UHGV virus genome: UHGV-0253772
Reading direction: 5' to 3' (one strand)
Source: a virus
Length of the DNA stretch: 44,914 nt
Shown: piece by piece, positions 11,114 to 43,068 of the stretch
Layout: each line of letters begins with the position of its first letter
Position numbering within the stretch: position 1 is the stretch's first letter
Notes under the pieces: generated by a model
Database searches by the model: none
The model's input: only the letters and a program-made list of their open reading frames with translations
Told to the model about the DNA's origin: nothing
Made by a program: the position numbers and the translations under genes

Positions 11114-11189
11114 TGGAGAATCCGAAGGGACTCGAACCCTTATAAACCTGTTTTGCAGACAGGCACATAGCCATTTCTGTCACGGATTC
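11114..11189 (-). tRNA. tRNA-Cys (anticodon GCA)
   Basis: manual cloverleaf: 7 bp acceptor, T-loop GGTTCGAGTCC, anticodon loop cuGCAaa, CCA encoded. Confidence 0.65.
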
Positions 11190-11193
11190 AAAT

Positions 11194-11286
11194 TGGAGGA
11201 AGATACCAGACTTGAACTGGTACACCGATTTCTCAGTTACTGGCAGTTTAGCAAACTGCTCCCTTACCTTTTAGGGTTAATCTTCC
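11194..11286 (-). tRNA. tRNA-Ser (anticodon GCU), long variable arm
   Basis: 93 nt, T-loop GTTCAAGTC, anticodon loop ttGCTaa, long extra arm. Confidence 0.6.
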
Positions 11287-11287
11287 A

Positions 11288-12022
11288 TTATTTCTGTAAT
11301 GCGTTCTTCATTTCTGGTGTTGCAATAGTGTCAATCACACCAGTTTTACAAGCATCGTCAAACCAGTCTGGTAAGATACCTGCTAAGAACCCATTGATAT
11401 TCGTTTTAAGGTACTCTGCAATAAGGGCAGCTTCTTCTTCAATCATCTGCACAACTTCATCTGCATAAGCTGTAATCTTCGAAATACCTTCATTAATCTT
11501 ACTAACAGCTTGGTTAGCTAAATCAGAAATAGTATCAAGACCTTTGTCAATAGCATCTTGTAAGTCACTTAATACATCATTAACACCGTCTAGTGCACTG
11601 TTAATCATATCAATAGCTTTTTGACCATACTCTGTAGCAACACCCATAATACCACTAAATGGTGTACAACCGACTTGTTCACCTGCTGCACCCATAACAT
11701 TAGAATAACCTTTTGCTACCTGCATACGTGATGAAAACTCATCAATGGACTTTTGACCGTAATCCGTCAGCGTTTTGGTAGTTGATGTAGTACTTGTCAG
11801 ACTCGTTGTAAAGCTGTTAAGCAGAACTGTTGTAAGTCCAGCAGCAACAAGTTTATCCTTTATTGTAGGGTCTGTTACAGAGCTAATAGAGCTTACAAGT
11901 GATGTAGAGGCAGCTACGGTTCCACCGAGAACTGCTGCACCAGTAATAAGGGGATTAGAAAACCCTCTACCGGTTTTTAAGAGATTAAAAATCTCCTTAC
12001 CTTGTTCTGTCATCTCTTTCAT
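11288..12022 (-). CDS. hypothetical protein with N-terminal hydrophobic segment and helical C-terminal region
   Basis: ORF-track start at 12085 would overlap a tRNA; internal ATG at 12022 taken as start (244 aa). Confidence 0.5.
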   Translation of the reverse strand: MKEMTEQGKEIFNLLKTGRGFSNPLITGAAVLGGTVAASTSLVSSISSVTDPTIKDKLVAAGLTTVLLNSFTTSLTSTTSTTKTLTDYGQKSIDEFSSRMQVAKGYSNVMGAAGEQVGCTPFSGIMGVATEYGQKAIDMINSALDGVNDVLSDLQDAIDKGLDTISDLANQAVSKINEGISKITAYADEVVQMIEEEAALIAEYLKTNINGFLAGILPDWFDDACKTGVIDTIATPEMKNALQK

Positions 12023-12038
12023 TAAGCACCTTTGAAAT

Positions 12039-12115
12039 TGGTAGTCCAGTGGGATTTGAACCCTCTTCTCATGTTTTTCAGACACGCGCTTTAACCATAT
12101 AAGCTACTTGGACTA
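12039..12115 (-). tRNA. tRNA-Phe (anticodon GAA)
   Basis: T-loop GGTTCAAATCC, anticodon loop ctGAAaa; D-arm and acceptor pairing imperfect in manual fold. Confidence 0.5.
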
Positions 12116-12120
12116 TAAAT

Positions 12121-12196
12121 TGGGGTGACCTACGGGATTTGAACCCGTATAGACCATGTTCACAGCATGGGTCATTACCATTTATGATAAGGCCAC
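12121..12196 (-). tRNA. tRNA-His (anticodon GUG)
   Basis: acceptor 7 bp with one G-U, anticodon stem ccatg/catgg, loop ctGTGaa. Confidence 0.6.
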
Positions 12197-12227
12197 ATTT
12201 AAGGACTCTCGTAAGAACCCTTAGAAG

Positions 12228-12303
12228 TGGCAGCGGCATAAGGATTTGAACCTTAATAAGACAGCTTCAGAGACTGCTGCATTGCCAGTTATGCTATACC
12301 GCT
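12228..12303 (-). tRNA. tRNA-Gln (anticodon CUG)
   Basis: anticodon stem with two G-U pairs, loop ctCTGaa, T-loop TTCAAAT. Confidence 0.5.
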
Positions 12304-12308
12304 AAATT

Positions 12309-12388
12309 TGGTACTCCATATCGGATTCGAACCGATACATAACACAGATTTTAAGTCTGGCCTCTCTGCCAATTGGAGTAATGGAGCA
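12309..12388 (-). tRNA. tRNA-Leu (anticodon UAA), atypical short variable arm
   Basis: D-loop CAATTGGCAGA of type-II style, anticodon loop ctTAAaa, discriminator A, but only about 7 nt variable region; boundaries uncertain. Confidence 0.45.
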
Positions 12389-12389
12389 T

Positions 12390-12465
12390 TGGCGGGGGAT
12401 GTTGGAATTGAACCAACTTCTTCGATTTCAAAGACCGAGGTTTTAACCTTGTAAACTAATCCCCT
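12390..12465 (-). tRNA. tRNA-Gln (anticodon UUG)
   Basis: T-arm gttgg-TTCAATT-ccaac, anticodon stem tcggt/atcga, loop ctTTGaa. Confidence 0.6.
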
Positions 12466-12473
12466 TTAAATCT

Positions 12474-13031
12474 TTACTTTCTTAGTGGATGAATAAAGAA
12501 TGCCAACATAACTCTTTCCCTTGAGAATGCTCTTTCTTCTGGGACAACACTTTTTAGCTTCCACCCAATATAAATTCTCCAGTAAAACTGTTTACCAAAG
12601 ACTTTAATTGATGGGATAAAAGCGAATAATCCCCAAGCATTGCTGTTCCACATTAGGAGATAACCTGTCTGATTATCTTCAGGGTTAGAACTTACGTTGA
12701 TATTACCTTTCCACTTAGTAACATCTTTTACATCTCTTCCTAACACATGGTAAGAGAAGTTATAAGCTTTGTTTCTCCAGAGCCAACCAACTCTCTGCAT
12801 ATAGACACCAAGCTTACCAATCTTTCTAATCTTAGCCCATCGTTCGATATGACCTTCATCACCATCAATTGGGTTGTCATAAGTTTCCATCCATCTGAAC
12901 CCGAAAGGTAAGTGTCCTTTCTTCTCACTGTAGAATGGAACTACAAAAGGTGCTAAGATAACTGCTAAGATTGCTGCAAATGGCTCTAATAAAGCTAAGA
13001 AAATCCATGAAGCATACTTCAAATATCTCAT
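12474..13031 (-). CDS. hypothetical membrane protein
   Basis: 185 aa, N-terminal hydrophobic helices, W/Y-rich; ATG start. Confidence 0.5.
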   Translation of the reverse strand: MRYLKYASWIFLALLEPFAAILAVILAPFVVPFYSEKKGHLPFGFRWMETYDNPIDGDEGHIERWAKIRKIGKLGVYMQRVGWLWRNKAYNFSYHVLGRDVKDVTKWKGNINVSSNPEDNQTGYLLMWNSNAWGLFAFIPSIKVFGKQFYWRIYIGWKLKSVVPEERAFSRERVMLAFFIHPLRK

Positions 13032-13270
13032 TGTCTAATCCTAGTAAGGAGGTAAACATTATTATCTGTTTCTGAGTTTTCTGGTAAAGCTGTCTCAAAA
13101 TTGACGCTTTTAAATTGTCTCCCACCAAAGTAATGACCAATAAATTTTTGTACTTTTATTGGGTCACATTCCCAGCCGACTTTCAAGAAAATGTGGGTAT
13201 CTATAGTGGGAACCCTTACAAACTCAATACTATTGGAATTTTCATGTTCAACGACGATTAATGTTTGCAT
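13028..13270 (-). CDS. hypothetical protein
   Basis: 80 aa ORF, ATG start, overlaps downstream gene start by 4 nt. Confidence 0.45.
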   Translation of the reverse strand: MQTLIVVEHENSNSIEFVRVPTIDTHIFLKVGWECDPIKVQKFIGHYFGGRQFKSVNFETALPENSETDNNVYLLTRIRQ

Positions 13271-13288
13271 AAATCTCTCTTATTTATC

Positions 13289-13364
13289 TGGCGCAGGATA
13301 AGGGACTTGAACCCCTATTAACAGCTTCGTAGACTGTTGCTCTATCCATTTGAACTAATCCTGC
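13289..13364 (-). tRNA. tRNA-Arg (anticodon ACG)
   Basis: clean cloverleaf: acceptor gcaggat/atcctgc, anticodon stem acagt/gctgt, loop ctACGaa. Confidence 0.65.
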
Positions 13365-13479
13365 TTACCTACGAGAACACCATACAGTTTTTCACAAACT
13401 TTGCTTTTACGTCTGTTTAGATATGACGCTCTAAACTTTTTTTGCAATTGACTTATTACTCATAGTGTTCTCCTAAAAT

Positions 13480-13557
13480 TGGTGTTCCAAGACGGATTCG
13501 AACCGTCACTAGTACAAGGTTTGAGCTTGCATCCTCTGCCAATTGGGATACTGGAAC
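13480..13557 (-). tRNA. tRNA-Leu (anticodon CAA), atypical short variable arm
   Basis: D-loop CAATTGGCAGA, anticodon stem gcaag/cttgt, loop ctCAAac, discriminator A, about 6 nt variable region. Confidence 0.5.
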
Positions 13558-13558
13558 A

Positions 13559-13633
13559 TGGTACTCACTAAAGGACTTGAACCTTTTTCTTCATCTTGTA
13601 AGGGTGATGTTTTACCATATAAACTAAGCGAGT
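13559..13633 (-). tRNA. tRNA-Val (anticodon UAC)
   Basis: T-arm aaagg-TTCAAGT-ccttt, anticodon loop ctTACaa, one mismatch in anticodon stem. Confidence 0.5.
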
Positions 13634-13729
13634 GTGAAAGAGGTCTGAAGTTGTGCCACTAACTCAACTCCGTGGAATTTGTTACGGTCTTCAGTTGACT
13701 CAAAGTGGTCTTTCACTTGACCTCTGAAT

Positions 13730-13805
13730 TGGTGCTCCCACAAGGATTCGAACCCTGATAAGTTGCTTACAAGGCAACCGTAATAGCCAATTATACGATA
13801 GGAGC
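13730..13805 (-). tRNA. tRNA-Thr (anticodon UGU)
   Basis: anticodon stem gttgc/gcaac perfect, loop ctTGTaa, T-loop TTCGAAT. Confidence 0.65.
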
Positions 13806-13812
13806 ATTAATT

Positions 13813-13887
13813 TGGAGCATCCAGAGGGAATCGAACCCTCAACCTCAGTTTGGAAGACTGTAATTTTCCCGTTTAAACTATGGATGC
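13813..13887 (-). tRNA. tRNA-Gly (anticodon UCC)
   Basis: acceptor gcatcca/tggatgc, T-arm gaggg-TTCGATT-ccctc, loop ctTCCaa. Confidence 0.6.
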
Positions 13888-13893
13888 ACTAAT

Positions 13894-13969
13894 TGGTGGA
13901 GTCACTGAGAATTGAACTCAGTTCCCAAGTTTGCAAAACTCGAATTTTAACCATATAAACTATGACCCC
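13894..13969 (-). tRNA. tRNA-Ala (anticodon UGC)
   Basis: acceptor with G3-U70 pair typical of Ala identity, anticodon loop ttTGCaa. Confidence 0.6.
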
Positions 13970-13974
13970 AATTT

Positions 13975-14050
13975 TGGTACAGGTGGAGGGAATTGAACCC
14001 ATCGTCTTACTGATTAAGAGTCAGCCGCATAACCATTTTGCTACACCTGC
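13975..14050 (-). tRNA. tRNA-Lys (anticodon CUU)
   Basis: anticodon stem gctga/tcagt, loop ctCTTaa; T-stem only 3 clean pairs. Confidence 0.5.
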
Positions 14051-14057
14051 ATTAATT

Positions 14058-14134
14058 TGGTACACCTAGAGAGATTCGAACTCACACTGAGCAGATTCTA
14101 AGTCTGCTGCCTCTACCAATTGGGCTATAGGTGC
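14058..14134 (-). tRNA. tRNA-Leu (anticodon UAG), atypical short variable arm
   Basis: D-loop CAATTGGTAGA, anticodon stem gcaga/tctgc perfect, loop ctTAGaa, discriminator A, 5 nt variable region. Confidence 0.55.
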
Positions 14135-14377
14135 ATTAAATCTTTTTAGAGAACTTCTAAGAACCTAAGCAACAAGGTTCCACAACAAGCTGTAATAACC
14201 TTAGAAGCCCTCTAAAAAGACCTAATTTGGTCTTTGCATAGTCTTGTTTAATCCGGTGACTAGAACCTTTGGAGAGCTTGATATTATCTCTTCTCCGTGA
14301 CACCTACTAGGTGCTTTACTGTGCGTGTACGACAATACACGAGGGATAAACCGAAAATGCGAGCAAGCATGGACGGA

Positions 14378-14719
14378 TTAAATCTTTAAGCTAAGTTCAG
14401 TCTTAGACTTGACATCTTTAGCTTTGTAGATGACAACTTTATCAAGTGGTTCAATGTAAACAGCTAAGTAATCAACTTGAGAGTTATCAAAATTCATTAT
14501 TCTATTTTCATTCTTGTTAGAACGAACTCTTTTCAGTTGCACTCTCCAAAGTTCACCTCTTTTGACTGATGTTGATTTTACCTCAACAGTCTCAATCAAG
14601 CCATCTTTGTGGACTAGAAAGTCATACTTTGCATTATCTGTAGCTGGTGAATACACTTCATAACCTCTTTTGAGGAAAGCTAATTGTGTAGCAATTTCAC
14701 CTACTGAACCTTTCTTCAT
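14378..14719 (-). CDS. Hjc-like PD-(D/E)xK nuclease (Holliday-junction-resolvase-like fold)
   Basis: motif order GSxGE ... YDFLV ... IETVEVKS matches the E-D-ExK signature of Hjc-type nucleases; ATG at 14719 with AAGGTGA upstream; the ORF-track start at 14728 is a GTG. Confidence 0.45.
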   Translation of the reverse strand: MKKGSVGEIATQLAFLKRGYEVYSPATDNAKYDFLVHKDGLIETVEVKSTSVKRGELWRVQLKRVRSNKNENRIMNFDNSQVDYLAVYIEPLDKVVIYKAKDVKSKTELSLKI

Positions 14720-14740
14720 AATCATCACCTTAAATTATTT

Positions 14741-14827
14741 TGGCAGAGAGTGCAGGAGTTGAACCCGTACCGTTTCCAGCAGCACCAGTTTTCAAGGCTG
14801 GTTGGTCTCCGTTGACCGCCACTCTCT
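14741..14827 (-). tRNA. tRNA-Ser (anticodon UGA), long variable arm
   Basis: 87 nt, perfect 7 bp acceptor agagagt/actctct, loop ctTGAaa, extra arm present. Confidence 0.6.
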
Positions 14828-14831
14828 CCGA

Positions 14832-14902
14832 AACAATCTTTGGCAGGGGTGTAGAGATTCGAACTCTAATCAAGAATTTTGGAGACTCTATTGCTGCCAT
14901 AG
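14832..14902 (-). tRNA. tRNA-Trp (anticodon CCA)
   Basis: acceptor aggggtg/cacccct, T-arm tagag-TTCGAAT-ctcta, loop ctCCAaa. Confidence 0.6.
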
Positions 14903-15050
14903 CTCACCCCTATTAAAACTACAATTCGAAGCTTACCGTATTATCTCAACACTGTAAAGCCCCTTCTCAGATTATTTACATGTTCTGGAAAACATGAGAT
15001 ACAGACCACCTCCCTACAGGAAGACCCGCTTAGGTCGTCTAAGTAATCTG

Positions 15051-15127
15051 CTAACTAATTGGCACACCCTACAGGATTCGAACCTGTAACTAACGATTTA
15101 GAAGACCGTTGCTCTATCCAATTGAAC
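15051..15127 (-). tRNA. tRNA-Arg (anticodon UCU)
   Basis: T-arm acagg-TTCGAAT-cctgt perfect, anticodon loop ctTCTaa. Confidence 0.6.
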
Positions 15128-15473
15128 TAAGGGTGCATTAATCTTTAAAGACTCTCTTAGAAAGCCCTTAAAGATGCCCACCTTATTAATCATACCGTGG
15201 GCTAGTACGCCAAATTCTTTGATGAGGGATTGGAATACCTCACTGGTGTTTAGCCTATCAAGCTACTGCCAGAAAAACATTGTCGTTTGCATTTATTTTA
15301 AATTTGCAAAATAGACGCTACGCAACGAAAACTATTCAGAATATGTACAACAAATTTCCCCACATTGTGTTACGTCTAACGCTCATGTATTGGTGTTTGA
15401 ATTATACATATTATGAATTATTTTTAGTTACTATAAAGTAGTCACATCTTAATGTCAACAACTTTATTGAAAT

Positions 15474-15549
15474 TGGTACTGGTAGGTGGAATCGAACCAC
15501 CGATGTTCCCTTATCAGGGGAGTGTTATAACCTTCTTAACTATACCAGC
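15474..15549 (-). tRNA. tRNA-Ile (anticodon GAU)
   Basis: T-arm ggtgg-TTCGATT-ccacc, anticodon loop ctGATaa. Confidence 0.6.
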
Positions 15550-15550
15550 T

Positions 15551-15627
15551 TGGAGGTTCAGATGGGAATCGAACCCACATTCATAGGGCTTATGAAACCC
15601 CTGCATTACCTTATCTGCGACTGAACC
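15551..15627 (-). tRNA. tRNA-Met (anticodon CAU)
   Basis: anticodon stem with three consecutive G-C pairs, loop ttCATaa; cannot distinguish initiator, elongator or Ile2 by eye. Confidence 0.55.
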
Positions 15628-15705
15628 ATAATAAGTACCCTAGTTAGAGAAACTGTTGAGTGGGTGTTTCCAGCCGCGCAGGTGTTTCTCAGTTAAGGGT
15701 GAATT

Positions 15706-15781
15706 TGGTAGAAGTGGAGGGATTCGAACCCATCGCCTGTCAGATTAAAAGTCTGCCGCATCACCATTCTGCTACACTTCC
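15706..15781 (-). tRNA. tRNA-Lys (anticodon UUU)
   Basis: T-arm similar to the Lys(CUU) gene, anticodon loop ctTTTaa. Confidence 0.55.
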
Positions 15782-16239
15782 ATTAAATTATCTTTGTAGA
15801 TAAGCTACCCAGACTTGCTTAAGGTCTGTAGCGATGTGCCTTTTTGGGTTTAAATCTAGAATTTACCCTTTCACCCTTTGTGGTCGCATACTCACAGGTA
15901 AGCTTAATAACTTATCTACAAAGATAATTACCAGACCGTTGTTTATCATCTTAAGTGCTACCATTACACCAACTCGACATCTGCCGAGTGAAGGAATCGA
16001 ACCTTCGCCTTTTCTTTACCGGAGAAATAGATTGTTTAAGTTTTGCTGTAAACGGTCTTCTGTAAATTTGTTGAGCCAGACCAAGTTTTAAATTTTTTCA
16101 AAATTAAATTGGCTTGAAAATATCATACGTACTTGCTGAATTTGGTCTTCTGCTCCTTTAAAGAATACTCGTAAGAACTCTTTAAGGGAGGGGCTAAATA
16201 GCCCTCTCAAAACATCATTTTGAAATACTTATTATAATT

Positions 16240-16316
16240 TGGCGGCTACGATGAGACTTGAACTCACATCATCTCCCGTGACAGGGGAGTATTTTCTCCA
16301 GTTAAACTACATAGCC
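16240..16316 (-). tRNA. tRNA-Asp (anticodon GUC)
   Basis: anticodon stem ctccc/gggag perfect, loop ctGTCac. Confidence 0.6.
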
Positions 16317-16321
16317 TCTAT

Positions 16322-16409
16322 TGGTGTGCCGTGTAGGAGTCGAACCTACCGAGTCTCAATGACAAGGGATTTACAGTCCCCACCGCTACCATCTACGGGA
16401 TAACGACAC
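16322..16409 (-). tRNA. tRNA-Tyr (anticodon GUA), long variable arm
   Basis: 88 nt, T-arm gtagg-TTCGACT-cctac, loop ctGTAaa, extra arm. Confidence 0.6.
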
Positions 16410-16418
16410 ATTTTAATT

Positions 16419-16495
16419 TGGCGGTTAGTCAGGGATTCGAACCCTGTGCCATTCGCTTAACAGGCGACCGCACATACCTTATGTGCTTCCTAACC
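16419..16495 (-). tRNA. tRNA-Asn (anticodon GUU)
   Basis: T-arm caggg-TTCGAAT-ccctg, D-stem gcac/gtgc, loop ctGTTaa. Confidence 0.6.
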
Positions 16496-16571
16496 TTAAT
16501 ACATTACCAGACCGTGTTTTTCTTTTATCCGCAAAAAGTAGTTTGTTGCTGAATACGGTCTTCTGTAAAAT

Positions 16572-16648
16572 TGGAGGCGGGTGCAGGAGTCGAACCTGCC
16601 GATACCATGCTAATGAGACATGTGAGACGCCCTTTCTCTATACCCGCA
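16572..16648 (-). tRNA. tRNA-Met (anticodon CAU), second copy
   Basis: T-arm gcagg-TTCGACT-cctgc, anticodon stem catgt/gcatg, loop ctCATta; acceptor boundaries uncertain. Confidence 0.45.
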
Positions 16649-16739
16649 ATTCTTAATGACCAGACCAAATCTCTTCTTTGTCCGATTTACCTTCAGATGA
16701 ATAAGATTAAGTTTGCTGTAATTGGTCTTCTGTCAAAAC

Positions 16740-16817
16740 TGGCGTTCCAGAAGGGATTTGAACCCTCAGATATCCACTTTGAAAGAGTGGTGACTTTACC
16801 ATTTTGTCTACTGGAAC
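16740..16817 (-). tRNA. tRNA-Glu (anticodon UUC)
   Basis: acceptor gttccag/ctggaac, anticodon stem ccact/agtgg perfect, loop ctTTCaa. Confidence 0.6.
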
Positions 16818-16824
16818 ATTAATT

Positions 16825-16901
16825 TGGTCTCTGTTGGAGGACTTGAACCTCCGGCCTTACCGCCCCAAACGGAACGCTCTACCAAGCTGAGCTAAACAGA
16901 G
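16825..16901 (-). tRNA. tRNA-Pro (anticodon UGG)
   Basis: acceptor ctctgtt/aacagag, T-arm ggagg-TTCAAGT-cctcc, loop ttTGGgg. Confidence 0.55.
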
Positions 16902-20564: not shown

Positions 20565-21694
20565 TTAAAGCAAAAACTTACCCAGACTTCAAAGAGTTTG
20601 TGAAGGGCTTCATTGCAAACGTAAAGGCTGGTAAGAGATATGATTTTAGAACATATCAAGAAGCTATTTTACCGCTTACCTATAGTTCATATTGGCCTGA
20701 AGCTGATATCGCAGAAGTTGAGAAGTTTGACTACAAGCCAGACTACAAAGTTCCTTTTAGTGATGAATTGCTTTACAGTGTTGGTGCACAGATGAGAACT
20801 GCTGATTTCTTCATGGATTTGCAGTATGCAATCATCAATGGTAAAGATGTTGACACAATTTACTGTGAATGGTTGGCAAGAGTTAAGCCGTTCTCAATGT
20901 TGAATGCTAAGTTGAAGGATGCTATCAAGCCACCATCAATTACTCAGCAACCAACCAATCAAACAGTAAATGAAGGTGGTACACTTACCCTAAGTATTAT
21001 TGCAACTAATGCCACTGGATATCAATGGAAGAAGGATGGTGAGGACATCTCCAGTGCCACTTCTGCAACTTACACAAAACAATCTGTAGTACCTGCCGAT
21101 GCTGGTTCATATACTTGTGTTGTATCTGGAGAGGCTGGGACAAGTGTTACTTCAGACGCAGCAACAGTTACCGTTAACGCACTACCTGTTATTACCAAGC
21201 AACCTTCTAGCCAGACCATCAATGAGGGTGGAAACATTAGCTTGGAAGTGACTGCCACAGGTGCAACGGGCTATCAGTGGAAGAAAGATGGCTCTAATAT
21301 TCCTTCAGCTACAAATGCTACTTATAGCAAGTCTGGTGCACTACCAGCAGATGCAGGTTCATATACTTGCGTTGTAACGGGTGCAGGTGGTTCCGTTACT
21401 TCTAGCCCTGCAACAGTAACTGTTAAAGCACTTCCGGTAATCACTCAACAGCCAACTAATCAAGAAATCACTGAAGGTGAGGTATTGACACTCAACGTTG
21501 TGGCAACAGGTGCAACGGGTTATCAGTGGAAGAAGGGTGAGGAAAACATCCCAGACGCAACGACTGCAACTTACACCAAAGAAGGTGCAACTGCTGCTGA
21601 TGCAGGAAGCTACACTTGCGTAGTGACTGGTGCAGGTGGCTCTGTAACATCTAATGCGGCAACAGTTACAGTTAACCCAACAGGGGAGGCATAA
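20561..21694 (+). CDS. protein with three tandem Ig-like domains and a unique N-terminal domain
   Basis: three about 80 aa repeats each with TGYQWKKDG ... ADAGSYTCVV ... ATVTV pattern; stop overlaps endolysin start (TAATG). Confidence 0.65.
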   Translation: MIKAKTYPDFKEFVKGFIANVKAGKRYDFRTYQEAILPLTYSSYWPEADIAEVEKFDYKPDYKVPFSDELLYSVGAQMRTADFFMDLQYAIINGKDVDTIYCEWLARVKPFSMLNAKLKDAIKPPSITQQPTNQTVNEGGTLTLSIIATNATGYQWKKDGEDISSATSATYTKQSVVPADAGSYTCVVSGEAGTSVTSDAATVTVNALPVITKQPSSQTINEGGNISLEVTATGATGYQWKKDGSNIPSATNATYSKSGALPADAGSYTCVVTGAGGSVTSSPATVTVKALPVITQQPTNQEITEGEVLTLNVVATGATGYQWKKGEENIPDATTATYTKEGATAADAGSYTCVVTGAGGSVTSNAATVTVNPTGEA

Positions 21695-22158
21695 TGCAAC
21701 TCTCAAGAAAAGGTTTAGATGCCATTAAGTTCTTTGAAGGTCTGAAGTTAGAGGCTTACAAAGACTCTGCCGGAATCCCAACAATCGGGTACGGTACAAT
21801 CCGTATTGACGGAAAACCTGTTAAGATGGGTATGAAAATTACTGCTGAACAAGCTGAACAGTATCTTCTCGCAGATGTTGAAAAGTTTGTTGCAGCAGTG
21901 AACAAAGCTATCAAGGTTCCAACTTCTCAGAATGAGTTCGATGCACTTGTAAGTGAAACATACAACATCGGTATCACAGCTATGCAGGACTCTACATTTA
22001 TCAAGCGCCACAATGCTGGTAATAAAGTAGGTTGTGCAGAAGCTATGCAGTGGTGGAACAAGATTACAGTCAAAGGTGAGAAGGTCACTTCAAACGGTCT
22101 GAAAAATAGACGAAGAATGGAAGCTGACATTTATCTTGACAGTGTATATCCAAAGTAA
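21694..22158 (+). CDS. endolysin, GH24 phage lysozyme family
   Basis: N-terminal GLDAIKFFEGLKLEAYKDSAGIPTIGYGT signature of phage lysozyme/muramidase with catalytic Glu. Confidence 0.85.
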   Translation: MQLSRKGLDAIKFFEGLKLEAYKDSAGIPTIGYGTIRIDGKPVKMGMKITAEQAEQYLLADVEKFVAAVNKAIKVPTSQNEFDALVSETYNIGITAMQDSTFIKRHNAGNKVGCAEAMQWWNKITVKGEKVTSNGLKNRRRMEADIYLDSVYPK

Positions 22159-24818: not shown

Positions 24819-25033
24819 AAAAACTAACTACAGTTGAAGATTACTACAAGCTGTCCCTATTAGAACAATATCGTAGGAGTCAGAATATCAGAAAATGCTA
24901 TGGTAAACACGCTGAAGGTGACTTTTACCGTTGCTACGATGCAGATTTAAAAGGTGTAACACCTAGAGGGAAAGTCCTGCAAAGACTTGTTGACCTTGAG
25001 TGGAACAAACGATTGAGAGGGGTTGGAAAATGA
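24815..25033 (+). CDS. hypothetical protein
   Basis: 72 aa ORF. Confidence 0.45.
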   Translation: MKKLTTVEDYYKLSLLEQYRRSQNIRKCYGKHAEGDFYRCYDADLKGVTPRGKVLQRLVDLEWNKRLRGVGK

Positions 25034-25533
25034 TTTACGAAGAAAGATATAAAATAGATTATCAGGATACTCGTCATCATACTTCTTTGAGAGTAACCAA
25101 ACCAAATGGAGATACCGGTATCATAGCACATTTCGGTGGTGATTATTGGTACGGTACAGGTTGTTTTGAAGGCTACACTCAAGAATACTTGAAAGCTTTC
25201 TACAGAGATTTTACAAACGACTACAACAGAGTTGTTGACGAAAAGAATAAGTGCATTAAGCATGAACACCATGCCAGAGGTTGTCTGAATATTGCTATGA
25301 TACTGGTTTTCTTCTTAGCAACATTACTAGCCGTATCAGCAATCAGCTACATAGCTCAAGACTTGACTATCACACAGATTACTGCAAAGGTATATGATGT
25401 TTGGTACTTGTATGCTGTTCCTTTAGCTGGTATCATCATCTCACTACTAAGATTCAGAGTTCATAAGAAACGACTTAAGGACTCGGAGATTAAACTTGAA
25501 GAGGTAAGTAAAGAATGCAACCTACAATTATAG
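25030..25533 (+). CDS. hypothetical membrane protein (two C-terminal transmembrane helices)
   Basis: ATG at 25030; hydrophobic segments LNIAMILVFFLATLLAVSAISYI and VWYLYAVPLAGIIISLL. Confidence 0.5.
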   Translation: MIYEERYKIDYQDTRHHTSLRVTKPNGDTGIIAHFGGDYWYGTGCFEGYTQEYLKAFYRDFTNDYNRVVDEKNKCIKHEHHARGCLNIAMILVFFLATLLAVSAISYIAQDLTITQITAKVYDVWYLYAVPLAGIIISLLRFRVHKKRLKDSEIKLEEVSKECNLQL

Positions 25534-32913: not shown

Positions 32914-33246
32914 TCAAGAGAAATTTTTTCGTTTGTTCAGTTCTTGGACAATTACAGTGTAATAGTCTTTTAAGTCACTGATATTTAAAGCATTTATCAG
33001 AGAGTTATAATCATCGACAAGCTGAAAATTATCTTTGAAAATGTCGCTGATTTGATAAGTTTTTGATTGAAATCTGAAGCTCATTTCTAACCGTTTTATT
33101 TGTTCATCACTTAAACGCTCCAGAAAGCTCATTACAAGGCTATTATTAACCTGTTGCGTGATTGCCTTACTTGCCAAATTATATGCGCTATAAGCCTTGT
33201 ACAGTGCTATAATGGCAATGATTGCAGTGATACCCATCATTAACAT
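32914..33246 (-). CDS. hypothetical membrane-anchored protein
   Basis: 110 aa, N-terminal TM helix, start overlaps upstream gene end. Confidence 0.5.
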   Translation of the reverse strand: MLMMGITAIIAIIALYKAYSAYNLASKAITQQVNNSLVMSFLERLSDEQIKRLEMSFRFQSKTYQISDIFKDNFQLVDDYNSLINALNISDLKDYYTVIVQELNKRKNFS

Positions 33247-36683: not shown

Positions 36684-36949
36684 TTCCTCGTTTTAAGAAC
36701 TGCTAAGATTTCTTTAGAATCTGGTAAGAACCATGTGTAGTGATTCTCTTTGATTTCTGGATGAGTGTCAACCTTTATTTTGCAATCTTTACCAACATGC
36801 TTAAGCTGTGCTGTGACACCTTGCATAAAAATATGACACATCACATTATCCATAATGGTAGGTATGAAGTCAATTCGCATATAAGTTTCTTTTGGTCGTG
36901 GTAACAGTAAGTATCCTTCTACGTAAAAAGTATCTTCATTCTCTGTCAT
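36680..36949 (-). CDS. hypothetical protein
   Basis: 89 aa ORF, coupled to upstream stop. Confidence 0.5.
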   Translation of the reverse strand: MTENEDTFYVEGYLLLPRPKETYMRIDFIPTIMDNVMCHIFMQGVTAQLKHVGKDCKIKVDTHPEIKENHYTWFLPDSKEILAVLKTRK

Positions 36950-37215
36950 TGCTGTTTATTTCCTAATAAAATCATATCAATAAGGTTATTAGCTTTGATT
37001 GTACACTGGTAGAATTCATCACGATAAAACTCAAGGGCTGCTGCCACATCACTACCGGTATTACCTTTGATAGTGAATCTTGAATCTTCTTGAGTGTACT
37101 TGTCACTCTCACTTACTTGGGAGTTTTTGAATGTACTGCTCACTTTGTTCGTTGAACACCCTGACATAATTATCAGTAACACAAACATTATAAAACTCTG
37201 GCTTAGTTTTTTCAT
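36946..37215 (-). CDS. putative o-spanin (outer-membrane lipoprotein, Rz1-like)
   Basis: signal peptide ending in lipobox-like IMSGC; starts inside the 3' part of the i-spanin gene in another frame; AAGAGGT RBS. Confidence 0.5.
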   Translation of the reverse strand: MKKLSQSFIMFVLLIIMSGCSTNKVSSTFKNSQVSESDKYTQEDSRFTIKGNTGSDVAAALEFYRDEFYQCTIKANNLIDMILLGNKQQ

Positions 37216-37456
37216 ATGTTAGTACCTCTTTTGTATGCTTATTCTTAGCAAGCACGTCTTTCAAATCATTTTTGTAATTGGTGCTCAGTGTAACTAATCC
37301 TTCCTGATAAGCATCTTTAGCAACACTTATCAGCTTCTCATTGTTTAACTCAGCTTCAGCAACTTGGTAGTCTCTGTAAGAGTATCCTCCCCAGACACCC
37401 GCCCCAACTAAGAAAACAATTATGAAAGTAGCTTGACAGAACTCTTTAAATGTCAT
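37109..37456 (-). CDS. putative i-spanin (Rz-like)
   Basis: N-terminal TM helix, helical periplasmic part, overlapped by o-spanin gene; AGGAGA RBS. Confidence 0.5.
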   Translation of the reverse strand: MTFKEFCQATFIIVFLVGAGVWGGYSYRDYQVAEAELNNEKLISVAKDAYQEGLVTLSTNYKNDLKDVLAKNKHTKEVLTYEKTKPEFYNVCVTDNYVRVFNEQSEQYIQKLPSK

Positions 37457-37471
37457 TTAACAATCTCCTGA

Positions 37472-37496
37472 AATGAAAAAGGCTCCCGAAGGAGCC
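37472..37496 (-). terminator. rho-independent terminator
   Basis: minus-strand GGCUCC-UUCG-GGAGCC hairpin followed by U5. Confidence 0.65.
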
Positions 37497-37508
37497 TGTA
37501 TCTTAACC

Positions 37509-37984: not shown

Positions 37985-38680
37985 TCAATGTTTAACTAAC
38001 ATGGTTTTAATGTGTGGAAGGATTCTGTTTACCTTCTGAACATTCTTCTCTGTATCTTCTATAAAACATACTATATTAAAGTAAGGCAGAATGCAAGACT
38101 GAATCATCCTCACTTTCAAACTTTCTGCACTTATAGAATTATTCCCAAAACCACGCATAAAAAGCATGTAGTCATGCTCTGTGTTATGCCTTAAAAACAT
38201 CTCAGTAGGTATTCTCTGAGATTCACCTCTGGCTGTCAAGAGTCCAATGGCAGCATGATTAGCAATTGCATCAATAATATTGAAAACATACGTTGGTTTT
38301 GCTCTTACAGAGTCAAGAAGATTAGTGTACTGTGAAAATGACCCATCAATCAATTCTGTTGAGCAATCTTCGTGATTAAAATTTGTAAGAACACCATCAA
38401 TATCTGCTAAGATGAGGTTACCTTTTTCTACAAGGTCTTTATTGACTATGACTAAACTGTCACGTCTTACACCTATAGATTGTCCAGTCTCTTTGTCCAC
38501 AACGTTCACAATTGATTCTGAAGTGTGGAACTCTTCAAGTGAACATACAACTTCTCTTGCAGTATCTTCAAAATCCCTGCACTGTTCTGAAGTCCATACA
38601 CAGGAATCAAGACCTAACTCATGAGGGTGCAAGTCGTAAGCATGACACAGGACTTCATCAGACTTTCTTAATTTTTTCAT
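37985..38680 (-). CDS. HAD-superfamily hydrolase, 5'(3')-deoxyribonucleotidase-like
   Basis: motif I LADIDGVLTNF (DxDGV) in the C-terminal half. Confidence 0.5.
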   Translation of the reverse strand: MKKLRKSDEVLCHAYDLHPHELGLDSCVWTSEQCRDFEDTAREVVCSLEEFHTSESIVNVVDKETGQSIGVRRDSLVIVNKDLVEKGNLILADIDGVLTNFNHEDCSTELIDGSFSQYTNLLDSVRAKPTYVFNIIDAIANHAAIGLLTARGESQRIPTEMFLRHNTEHDYMLFMRGFGNNSISAESLKVRMIQSCILPYFNIVCFIEDTEKNVQKVNRILPHIKTMLVKH

Positions 38681-39206
38681 GGTTTACCTTAGAAATGTTT
38701 GTTGCAAATTCACATTGAGCAATAACTTTCATGTTGTTATAGACATCTTGAGAATATTTCTTAGCTTTAGGAATTTTGTATGAATACCCAGCATTATAAG
38801 ATGCTAAAACTTTTTGTAAAGTCTTCTTTGACTTTGGCTGACCATGTACCTTTGTCCAAAACTCAAGCTCTTTATGCGTTTCTTTTGCGGCATAATCAAA
38901 ATCTTTTAAAAGTTTCTTTTTAGCCACATTAGGACTAATTTTGTTACGCTTTACAACAGTCTTCAAGTGATTCTGGAAAATACCATAGTCATGTGTCTTT
39001 TTATTCTCTACCTTCAGACCTAACTCTGACTCTTGTAAGGCTATAGCAGCTAGAGTGATACCCCAACCTTTACCCATATTATTCTCACCATACTGGTAAG
39101 CTTTTAACATGTTTACTTTTTGGCTAATTGATAGCTCTGGGCAGTCAACTGCATAAGATAAGTGTGCTGTAAACATTAAGCACAAACCTAGAATCAATTT
39201 CTTCAT
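38658..39206 (-). CDS. secreted lytic transglycosylase (SLT domain)
   Basis: signal peptide MKKLILGLCLMFTAHLSYA; catalytic-region motifs AIALQESELG and SYNAG. Confidence 0.65.
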   Translation of the reverse strand: MKKLILGLCLMFTAHLSYAVDCPELSISQKVNMLKAYQYGENNMGKGWGITLAAIALQESELGLKVENKKTHDYGIFQNHLKTVVKRNKISPNVAKKKLLKDFDYAAKETHKELEFWTKVHGQPKSKKTLQKVLASYNAGYSYKIPKAKKYSQDVYNNMKVIAQCEFATNISKVNHEKIKKV

Positions 39207-42891: not shown

Positions 42892-43068
42892 TTACTTATT
42901 AAACATTTTACCAGAACCACCACACATAGGGCAACAACCTGCTCTTGTATAACCTTCTCCATTACAGAAGTCACATTTTTTGTGCTCTGCATAGTACTTG
43001 CAAAGAAGGTAAACAAACACTGCTACACTACCAAGTGACAGTAAGATTTCTATCCAATATGCTTGCAT
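42892..43068 (-). CDS. small membrane-anchored Cys-rich protein (not in ORF track)
   Basis: 58 aa, MQAYWIEILLSLGSVAVFVYLL then CDFCNGEGYTRAGCCPMCGGSG; GAGGTGA RBS. Confidence 0.4.
   Translation of the reverse strand: MQAYWIEILLSLGSVAVFVYLLCKYYAEHKKCDFCNGEGYTRAGCCPMCGGSGKMFNK

Follow-up and report, generated by a model that had tools for sequence, protein, structure and literature searches.

The 44,914-nt stretch of viral DNA analysed here (UHGV virus genome UHGV-0253772, hereafter the window) raised the question of whether two small minus-strand genes, which overlap in different frames and code for a 115-aa putative membrane protein and an 89-aa putative lipoprotein, constitute a two-component spanin, and of how such a pair would relate to the other lysis functions of the phage. 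The original prediction, made from the nucleotide sequence alone, had proposed a spanin pair encoded at a distance from the endolysin gene. The features relevant to this question are collected in Table 1.

Table 1 Positions of the features discussed in the text, numbered from the first nucleotide of the window
Feature	Position	Strand	Description
Soluble endolysin gene	21694-22158	+	154 aa, GH24 T4-lysozyme type; separate transcription unit
Small membrane ORF	25030-25533		two transmembrane helices, both in the C-terminal half
Small membrane ORF	32914-33246	-	110 aa, one N-terminal transmembrane helix
Further small membrane ORF	12474-13031		
Further small membrane ORF	42892-43068		
Predicted o-spanin gene	36946-37215	-	ATG start, 89-aa precursor, 70-aa mature lipoprotein (predicted)
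o-spanin lipobox IMSG/C, residues 16-20	~37156-37167 (MSGC)	-	Ser at +2
Dual-coding stretch, 107 nt	37109-37215	-	i-spanin residues 81-115 and o-spanin residues 1-36
Predicted i-spanin gene	37109-37456	-	ATG start, 115 aa; from the ORF listing
i-spanin N-terminal transmembrane helix, residues ~6-24	~37385-37441	-	hydrophobic-segment scan
i-spanin remainder, periplasmic domain of ~90 aa (predicted topology)		-	carries the invariant Cys92
Shine-Dalgarno-like AGGAG of the i-spanin gene	37465-37469	-	8-nt spacer to the start codon
Intrinsic-terminator-like hairpin	37480-37497	-	AGGCTCC-TTCG-GGAGCCT, then TTTTT; terminator scan
Polynucleotide kinase (PNK) gene	37985-38680	-	one gene from the spanin pair
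Vs.1-like protein gene	38658-39206	-	182 aa; three genes upstream of the spanins, between rIIB and PNK

Judged by its sequence, the window is Felixounavirus (Felix O1-like myovirus) DNA and covers about half of a genome of ~88 kb. The spanin region showed 95-96% nucleotide identity to Felixounavirus genomes, with 258 matching records, and its close matches included Escherichia phages Pr103Blw, EcoM2 and dune as well as Salmonella phages and others. The window also carries 27 tRNA genes arranged in two blocks (11114-16901, minus strand), which is typical of Felix O1-like phages. Felixounavirus-like sequence was further found in two records labelled ‘Campylobacter’ and one labelled ‘Staphylococcus’, and the i-spanin encoded by the 43-kb ‘Campylobacter phage A126’ (MG065668.1) is 100% identical to that of the window; the labels of these records suggest mislabelled or contaminated deposits.

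Both overlapping ORFs of the original prediction were recovered where it had placed them. Since their starts are 241 nt apart, the o-spanin ORF lies in the +1 frame, and according to the ORF listing it extends 163 nt beyond the i-spanin stop codon. Shine-Dalgarno-like sequences precede the i-spanin start (Table 1) and Met1 of the o-spanin, the latter being a GAGG with a 9-nt spacer. The strong terminator-like hairpin, also listed as a terminator in the annotation of phage Mijalis, precedes the i-spanin start by 23 nt and stands just before the AGGAG site; the sigma-70-like matches in its vicinity were all weak.

The pair was then compared with the definition of two-component spanins given by Summer 2007 and Kongari 2018, in which a small protein with one N-terminal transmembrane domain and a lipoprotein are encoded by adjacent genes, in association with lysis genes and with periplasmic cysteines, the i-spanin having a helical or coiled-coil domain in the periplasm. 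The 115-aa protein possesses a single hydrophobic segment (residues 6-24; Kyte-Doolittle value of 1.75 in a 19-residue window), retained in all homologues compared, which bears out its earlier description as a membrane protein; the type-II orientation given with that description is a prediction. An AlphaFold2 model of this protein was all-helical (helices 39-59, 65-79 and 85-111), but with a mean pLDDT of 59.5 from a shallow 12-sequence alignment it was too low in confidence to be suitable for a fold search. The 89-aa protein begins with MKKLSQSFIMFVLLIIMSG-C20-S and thereby displays a basic N-region (MKK), a hydrophobic core, a lipobox and a residue other than Asp at +2, i.e. a signal for signal peptidase II. 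The IMSGC motif recognised earlier as lipobox-like held up under a PROSITE PS51257-type rule (K/R within the first 7 residues, 6 uncharged residues, I-M-S-G-C): among the 231 ORFs of at least 40 aa in a six-frame translation of the whole window, this one alone satisfied the rule. The mature part of the o-spanin is proline-free and contains an invariant second cysteine, Cys71; together with the invariant Cys92 of the i-spanin it provides the periplasmic cysteines from which disulfides are predicted. The two genes are adjacent in the form of an overlapped arrangement in the +1 frame.

Comparison of the two proteins with family profiles assigned the i-spanin to PHROG phrog_1152, ‘Rz-like spanin’ (E = 1.1e-41, residues 1-115 aligned to positions 2-124 of the 127-position profile), and the o-spanin to the unnamed phrog_4180 (E = 3.4e-49) and, more weakly, to phrog_456, ‘Rz-like spanin’ (E = 1.1e-5). 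In a search of Pfam and NCBIfam neither spanin protein matched any family above threshold; the sub-threshold NCBIfam matches of the o-spanin were confined to lipoprotein signal regions, and a sub-threshold NCBIfam match of the i-spanin to a phosphatase family, far below the cutoff of that family, was discarded as irrelevant. A sequence search of solved structures returned no meaningful relative of the i-spanin, the o-spanin or the Vs.1-like protein discussed below.

Close Ounavirinae relatives alone were recovered by a large protein search, whereas tblastn against 50,697 phage records revealed distant homologues outside the Ounavirinae with 25-35% identity. Salmonella phage SI7, which is P2-like, has the order holin, endolysin and i-spanin homologue, the last with an overlapping lipobox ORF. 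In Klebsiella phage Carvaje a holin, a lysozyme and a holin/antiholin are followed by an i-spanin homologue and an overlapping, unannotated o-spanin homologue, while in Proteus phage 2207-N35 an overlapping spanin pair, its o-spanin unannotated, comes after the endolysin. The association with lysis genes is seen through these homologues, the endolysin gene of the window being 14.8 kb away. At 25-32% identity, the i-spanin homologues of these phages retain the N-terminal transmembrane helix and the motif KPxFxNxCxxDxYxRxFNE around the conserved cysteine, while the o-spanin homologues retain the lipobox as well as CAxxxNxL, a C-terminal motif. These conserved signals and the lysis-cassette contexts indicate that the family of each component occupies the position of spanins in ordinary lysis cassettes. 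Both motifs are common to Ounavirinae, Kuravirus, the P2-like phage SI7, Klebsiella phage Carvaje and a Proteus Gorganvirus. By their shared motifs, the pairs make up one widespread spanin family for which Pfam has no model.

The counterparts of the pair in Felix O1 are ORF6 (RefSeq ‘Rz-like spanin’) for the i-spanin and ORF7 for the o-spanin. Many relatives have the 115-aa gene annotated as i-spanin or Rz-like spanin, and the 270-nt ORF is annotated as o-spanin in Mijalis, SUSP1, Moogle and others. In Felixounavirus, Mooglevirus and Suspvirus the gene order is conserved as rIIA, rIIB, a 182-aa protein, PNK, a 159-aa hypothetical protein, i-spanin and o-spanin; a Hafnia phage and Erwinia phage phiEa21-4 have the same order with extra genes between PNK and the spanins. 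RT-PCR on Felix O1 has placed the peaks of ORF6 (the i-spanin), ORF3 (the Vs.1-like protein) and ORF35 (the lysin) all at 25 min, and this shared peak implies that the i-spanin is co-timed with the endolysin despite their separate transcription units.

The 182-aa product of the gene between rIIB and PNK has 32% identity (E = 2e-16) to T4 Vs.1 and a predicted Sec signal peptide, MKKLILGLCLMFTAHLSYA, with an A-x-A cleavage site before VD. Its invariant residues E59, Q78, Y137, N138 and G140 belong to the SLT lytic transglycosylase motifs E-S, G-x-x-Q and Y-N-A-G, and its distant homologues carry PF01464. An AlphaFold2 model (pLDDT 84) was compared with the PDB using Foldseek, and all of the top 25 matches were GH23-type lysozyme-fold enzymes, including goose-type lysozyme, a GH23 chitinase, EtgA, Slt/Cj0843, MltD, MltE and MltF; the best probability was ~1 and the TM-score ~0.5, with weak E-values. 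From its motifs and modelled fold, the Vs.1-like protein could be a second, exported muralytic enzyme. It had been pointed out in 2006 that Vs.1 marginally resembles SLT enzymes and might take part in lysis, so this GH23-like reading is not new. The position of the gene is conserved across Ounavirinae, and with the Vs.1-like gene three genes upstream the spanins do have a candidate muralytic function nearby. The original account of dispersed lysis functions was right about the distance to the endolysin and overlooked this secreted GH23-fold candidate.

This arrangement would also allow the Vs.1-like enzyme, PNK, the hypothetical protein and the two spanins to be regarded as a partial lysis module, in which a Sec-exported, holin-independent enzyme would cooperate with the spanins. 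Linkage across Ounavirinae, an intact SLT catalytic motif and the signal peptide speak for such a module, which, if real, would help explain the lack of a convincing holin in Ounavirinae; in T4, however, Vs.1 is unlinked to the spanin genes, and we regard the module as improbable.

Against a spanin function counts the location of the two genes, in a rIIA-rIIB-PNK block behind a terminator and not in a lysis cassette. Other points on this side are that neither protein reaches the threshold of a Pfam or NCBIfam family or resembles a solved structure, that the i-spanin model is too uncertain to establish a coiled coil, and that the mature o-spanin, unlike lambda Rz1, is free of proline. The pair could instead be an early envelope module, made of a lipoprotein for superinfection exclusion or receptor masking (like T5 Llp or Cor) and an inner-membrane partner, or the 115-aa protein could be an RI-like antiholin. 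The rIIA-rIIB-Vs.1-PNK block resembles the early and middle regions of T4, which fits these proposals, as does the distance between the spanin genes and the endolysin gene, and in size and N-terminal anchor the 115-aa protein resembles T4 RI (97 aa, 294-nt rI CDS). RI of T4 has the property of a signal anchor. Homologues of the pair are nevertheless found directly after the endolysin, and after the holin where one is annotated, in three unrelated phage groups, and the location itself has a parallel in T4, whose spanins are likewise beside the PNK gene and away from e and t. Furthermore, the Felix O1 ORF6 transcript peaks together with that of the lysin and not at 5 min, and the obligate combination of a membrane-anchored protein with a +1-frame lipoprotein is the defining signature of spanins (Kongari 2018). 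An envelope module or an antiholin is thus very unlikely.

Selection on the two reading frames was examined in a set of 33 copies of the 511-nt unit (29 distinct sequences), which came from public phage genomes, IMG/VR and the window itself. All copies keep 115 and 89 codons, both ATG starts and the 107-nt overlap, and the same lengths and overlap were seen in 31 related loci of Felixounavirus, Mooglevirus and Suspvirus. Among the 29 distinct sequences, the proportion of variable columns at codon positions 1, 2 and 3 was 27%, 17% and 74% in the i-spanin-only region and 28%, 17% and 84% in the o-spanin-only region, the latter being a normal coding pattern. In the overlap the three phases gave 26%, 19% and 28%; the freedom of third positions is lost there because each of them is a first or second position of the other frame. 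The SG/C lipobox, Cys71 and the C-terminal KANNLIDMILLGNKQQ of the o-spanin, as well as Cys92 of the i-spanin, are invariant across the variants. Residue 67 of the o-spanin (37015-37017, minus strand) is Glu in the window (RDEFY) and Gly in all 21 of the 21 other variants (RDGFY or RDGYY). The substitution pattern indicates that both frames of the pair are translated and under selection, and it rules out a chance ORF.

Wrong o-spanin starts have been reported in 64 cases (Kongari 2018). The reading in which the 89-aa ORF is a chance frame and the 115-aa protein alone is made, or in which the true product comprises 73 aa from Met17, draws on the frequency of artefacts among short overlapping ORFs and on the many GenBank records and automatic calls that give a 73-aa MSGC... 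product (one cluster has 303 members), but it was rejected as having a negligible probability in view of the dual-frame constraint and of a conserved signal peptide: Met1, the K/R-rich N-region, the hydrophobic core, SG/C and Cys71 are all kept at 24-32% identity in other phages, the GAGG ribosome-binding site stands before Met1, and a protein translated from Met17 would lack the signal peptide, while the conservation of the residues before it (37165-37215, minus strand) would have no explanation.

The two ORFs, the selection on both of them, their membrane and lipoprotein signals and the occurrence of their homologues in lysis cassettes are shown by the analysis, and we conclude with high confidence that the pair is the two-component spanin of a Felixounavirus, of the overlapped class, working in lysis as originally proposed. 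The topology, complex formation, disulfides and membrane fusion outlined here are inferred. The N-terminal helix of the 115-aa i-spanin would fix the protein in the inner membrane, and a mainly helical domain would project into the periplasm. The 89-aa o-spanin would be exported, lipid-modified at Cys20 and cleaved by signal peptidase II, and we propose that it is sorted to the outer membrane because its +2 residue is Ser and not Asp. On the model of lambda Rz/Rz1 and T4 PseT.3/PseT.2, the periplasmic domains may bind each other, probably as homodimers that are disulfide-linked via Cys92 and Cys71, and the resulting periplasm-spanning bridge would be restrained by the peptidoglycan mesh. Once a holin lets the soluble GH24 endolysin through and the wall is degraded, the spanin complexes would fuse the inner and outer membranes, leading to the burst of the cell. 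This sequence of events follows the lambda and T4 work summarised by Kongari 2018, in which a peptidoglycan-restrained complex fuses the membranes after endolysin action.

The endolysin corresponds to Felix O1 gp35, matches PF00959, Phage_lysozyme (E = 8.9e-41), and phrog_7, endolysin (E = 2.1e-58), and contains no hydrophobic segment. Both its identification and its location, on the strand opposite to the spanins, were thus as originally predicted, and the dispersal of the lysis functions agrees with published descriptions of Felix O1-like phages: scattered lysis genes are reported in the Moogle and Meda genome notes, and the Felix O1 genome paper (2010) found no holin beside lysin gp35 and named gp79, gp116, gp118, gp119 and gp131 as candidates.

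The restriction of holin candidates to the ORFs at 32914-33246 and 25030-25533, by contrast, proved unfounded, as the putative holin of the relatives lies outside this half-genome window. None of 60 relatives, sampled from ~250 matching records, has a holin annotation for either ORF, and these 60 name both merely ‘hypothetical’ or ‘membrane protein’. We therefore rejected the two as a closed list of holins while keeping them as candidates, the window containing further small membrane ORFs (Table 1). Transmembrane residues 1-21 of the 110-aa ORF fall outside its Suspvirus and Mooglevirus matches, which start at residue 23-24, and the membrane anchor of this protein may accordingly not be conserved. 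The putative holin of the relatives (Moogle gp54; Pr103Blw_00076) is a protein of 123-124 aa that carries a single transmembrane helix at its N-terminus and ends in a tail resembling a coiled coil. In Pr103Blw and Moogle its gene is located directly after the tail fibre genes and beside thymidylate synthase, a region absent from the window, and tblastn found no homologue of Moogle gp54 in the window (best E = 0.023, at chance level). When compared with family profiles, this putative holin matched no holin family, the matches being to phrog_4038 (unknown function) and, weakly, to coiled-coil Pfam families. The pair touches upon the long-recognised question of which protein is the holin in Felix O1-like phages, the usual candidate for which lies outside the window.

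Kongari et al. 2018 list Felix01/FO1a/UAB_phi87 and phiEa104/PhiEa21-4 as overlapped two-component spanins. Their 528 systems comprise 182 embedded, 228 overlapped and 118 separated pairs, the overlapped class being the commonest, and 507 of the 528 have a periplasmic cysteine for intermolecular disulfides. Taken together with the Moogle and Meda notes and the 2010 Felix O1 paper, this means that both the spanin pair and the scattered lysis genes were already known. No published complementation, lipidation or interaction work on this spanin family was found in the literature searched. The pair confirms the standard last-step lysis device in a Felix O1-like phage and has little significance beyond correct annotation; in the many records that call a 73-aa o-spanin, the methionine chosen as the start is the wrong one and the signal peptide is lost.

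Four known spanin systems come closest to the pair. Felix O1 ORF6/ORF7 (‘Felix01’ in SpaninDB, overlapped) and the pairs of Moogle, Mijalis, SUSP1 and Sf14 are orthologous to it, with the same lengths (115 and 89 aa), the same 107-nt overlap and the same neighbourhood; the i-spanins are 76-100% and the o-spanins 76-98% identical, and point substitutions alone distinguish them.

LysB/LysC of P2, the overlapped prototype, have the same arrangement, the o-spanin gene beginning within the i-spanin gene and ending past it, and are predicted to be proteins of the same types, but unlike the pair studied here they are encoded in a lysis cassette. Homology to the P2 proteins was tested and found no support. 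The o-spanin scored 13.2 bits against the LysC family PF23793, whose cutoff is 27; three of 8 family members gave a hit (best E = 0.016), and hhalign gave probabilities of 12.9% for LysC and 2.2% for LysB; the architecture alone is in common.

Lambda Rz/Rz1 belong to the same functional class, also have the o-spanin in the +1 frame and have periplasmic cysteines available. The Rz1 gene, however, lies completely within Rz as part of the S-R-Rz cassette, and its product is rich in proline (10 of 40 residues), whereas the genes in the window merely overlap, the mature o-spanin contains no proline and the pair is unlinked to the endolysin gene. No Pfam Rz or Rz1 match to the window pair was obtained at E-values up to 0.1. 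Of the ‘classic Rz/Rz1 overlapped architecture’ in the original prediction the term overlapped stands, while Rz/Rz1 does not, lambda being embedded and P2 lysB/lysC being the overlapped prototype.

T4 PseT.3/PseT.2 are similar in size (117 and 99 aa) and are likewise unlinked to the endolysin (e) and holin (t) genes. In the T4 order alc, pseT.3, pseT.2, pseT.1, pseT the spanin genes are one gene from PNK and upstream of it, whereas those of the window are downstream of PNK; the T4 pair is of the ‘separated’ class, its annotated CDSs sharing only 4 nt, and that of the window is overlapped. Homology to the T4 proteins was likewise unsupported, the i-spanins giving a BLASTP E-value of 27 and the o-spanins one of 0.035 that reflected the signal peptide alone. 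Overall, the pair works like the lambda, P2 and T4 spanins but is a separate sequence family.
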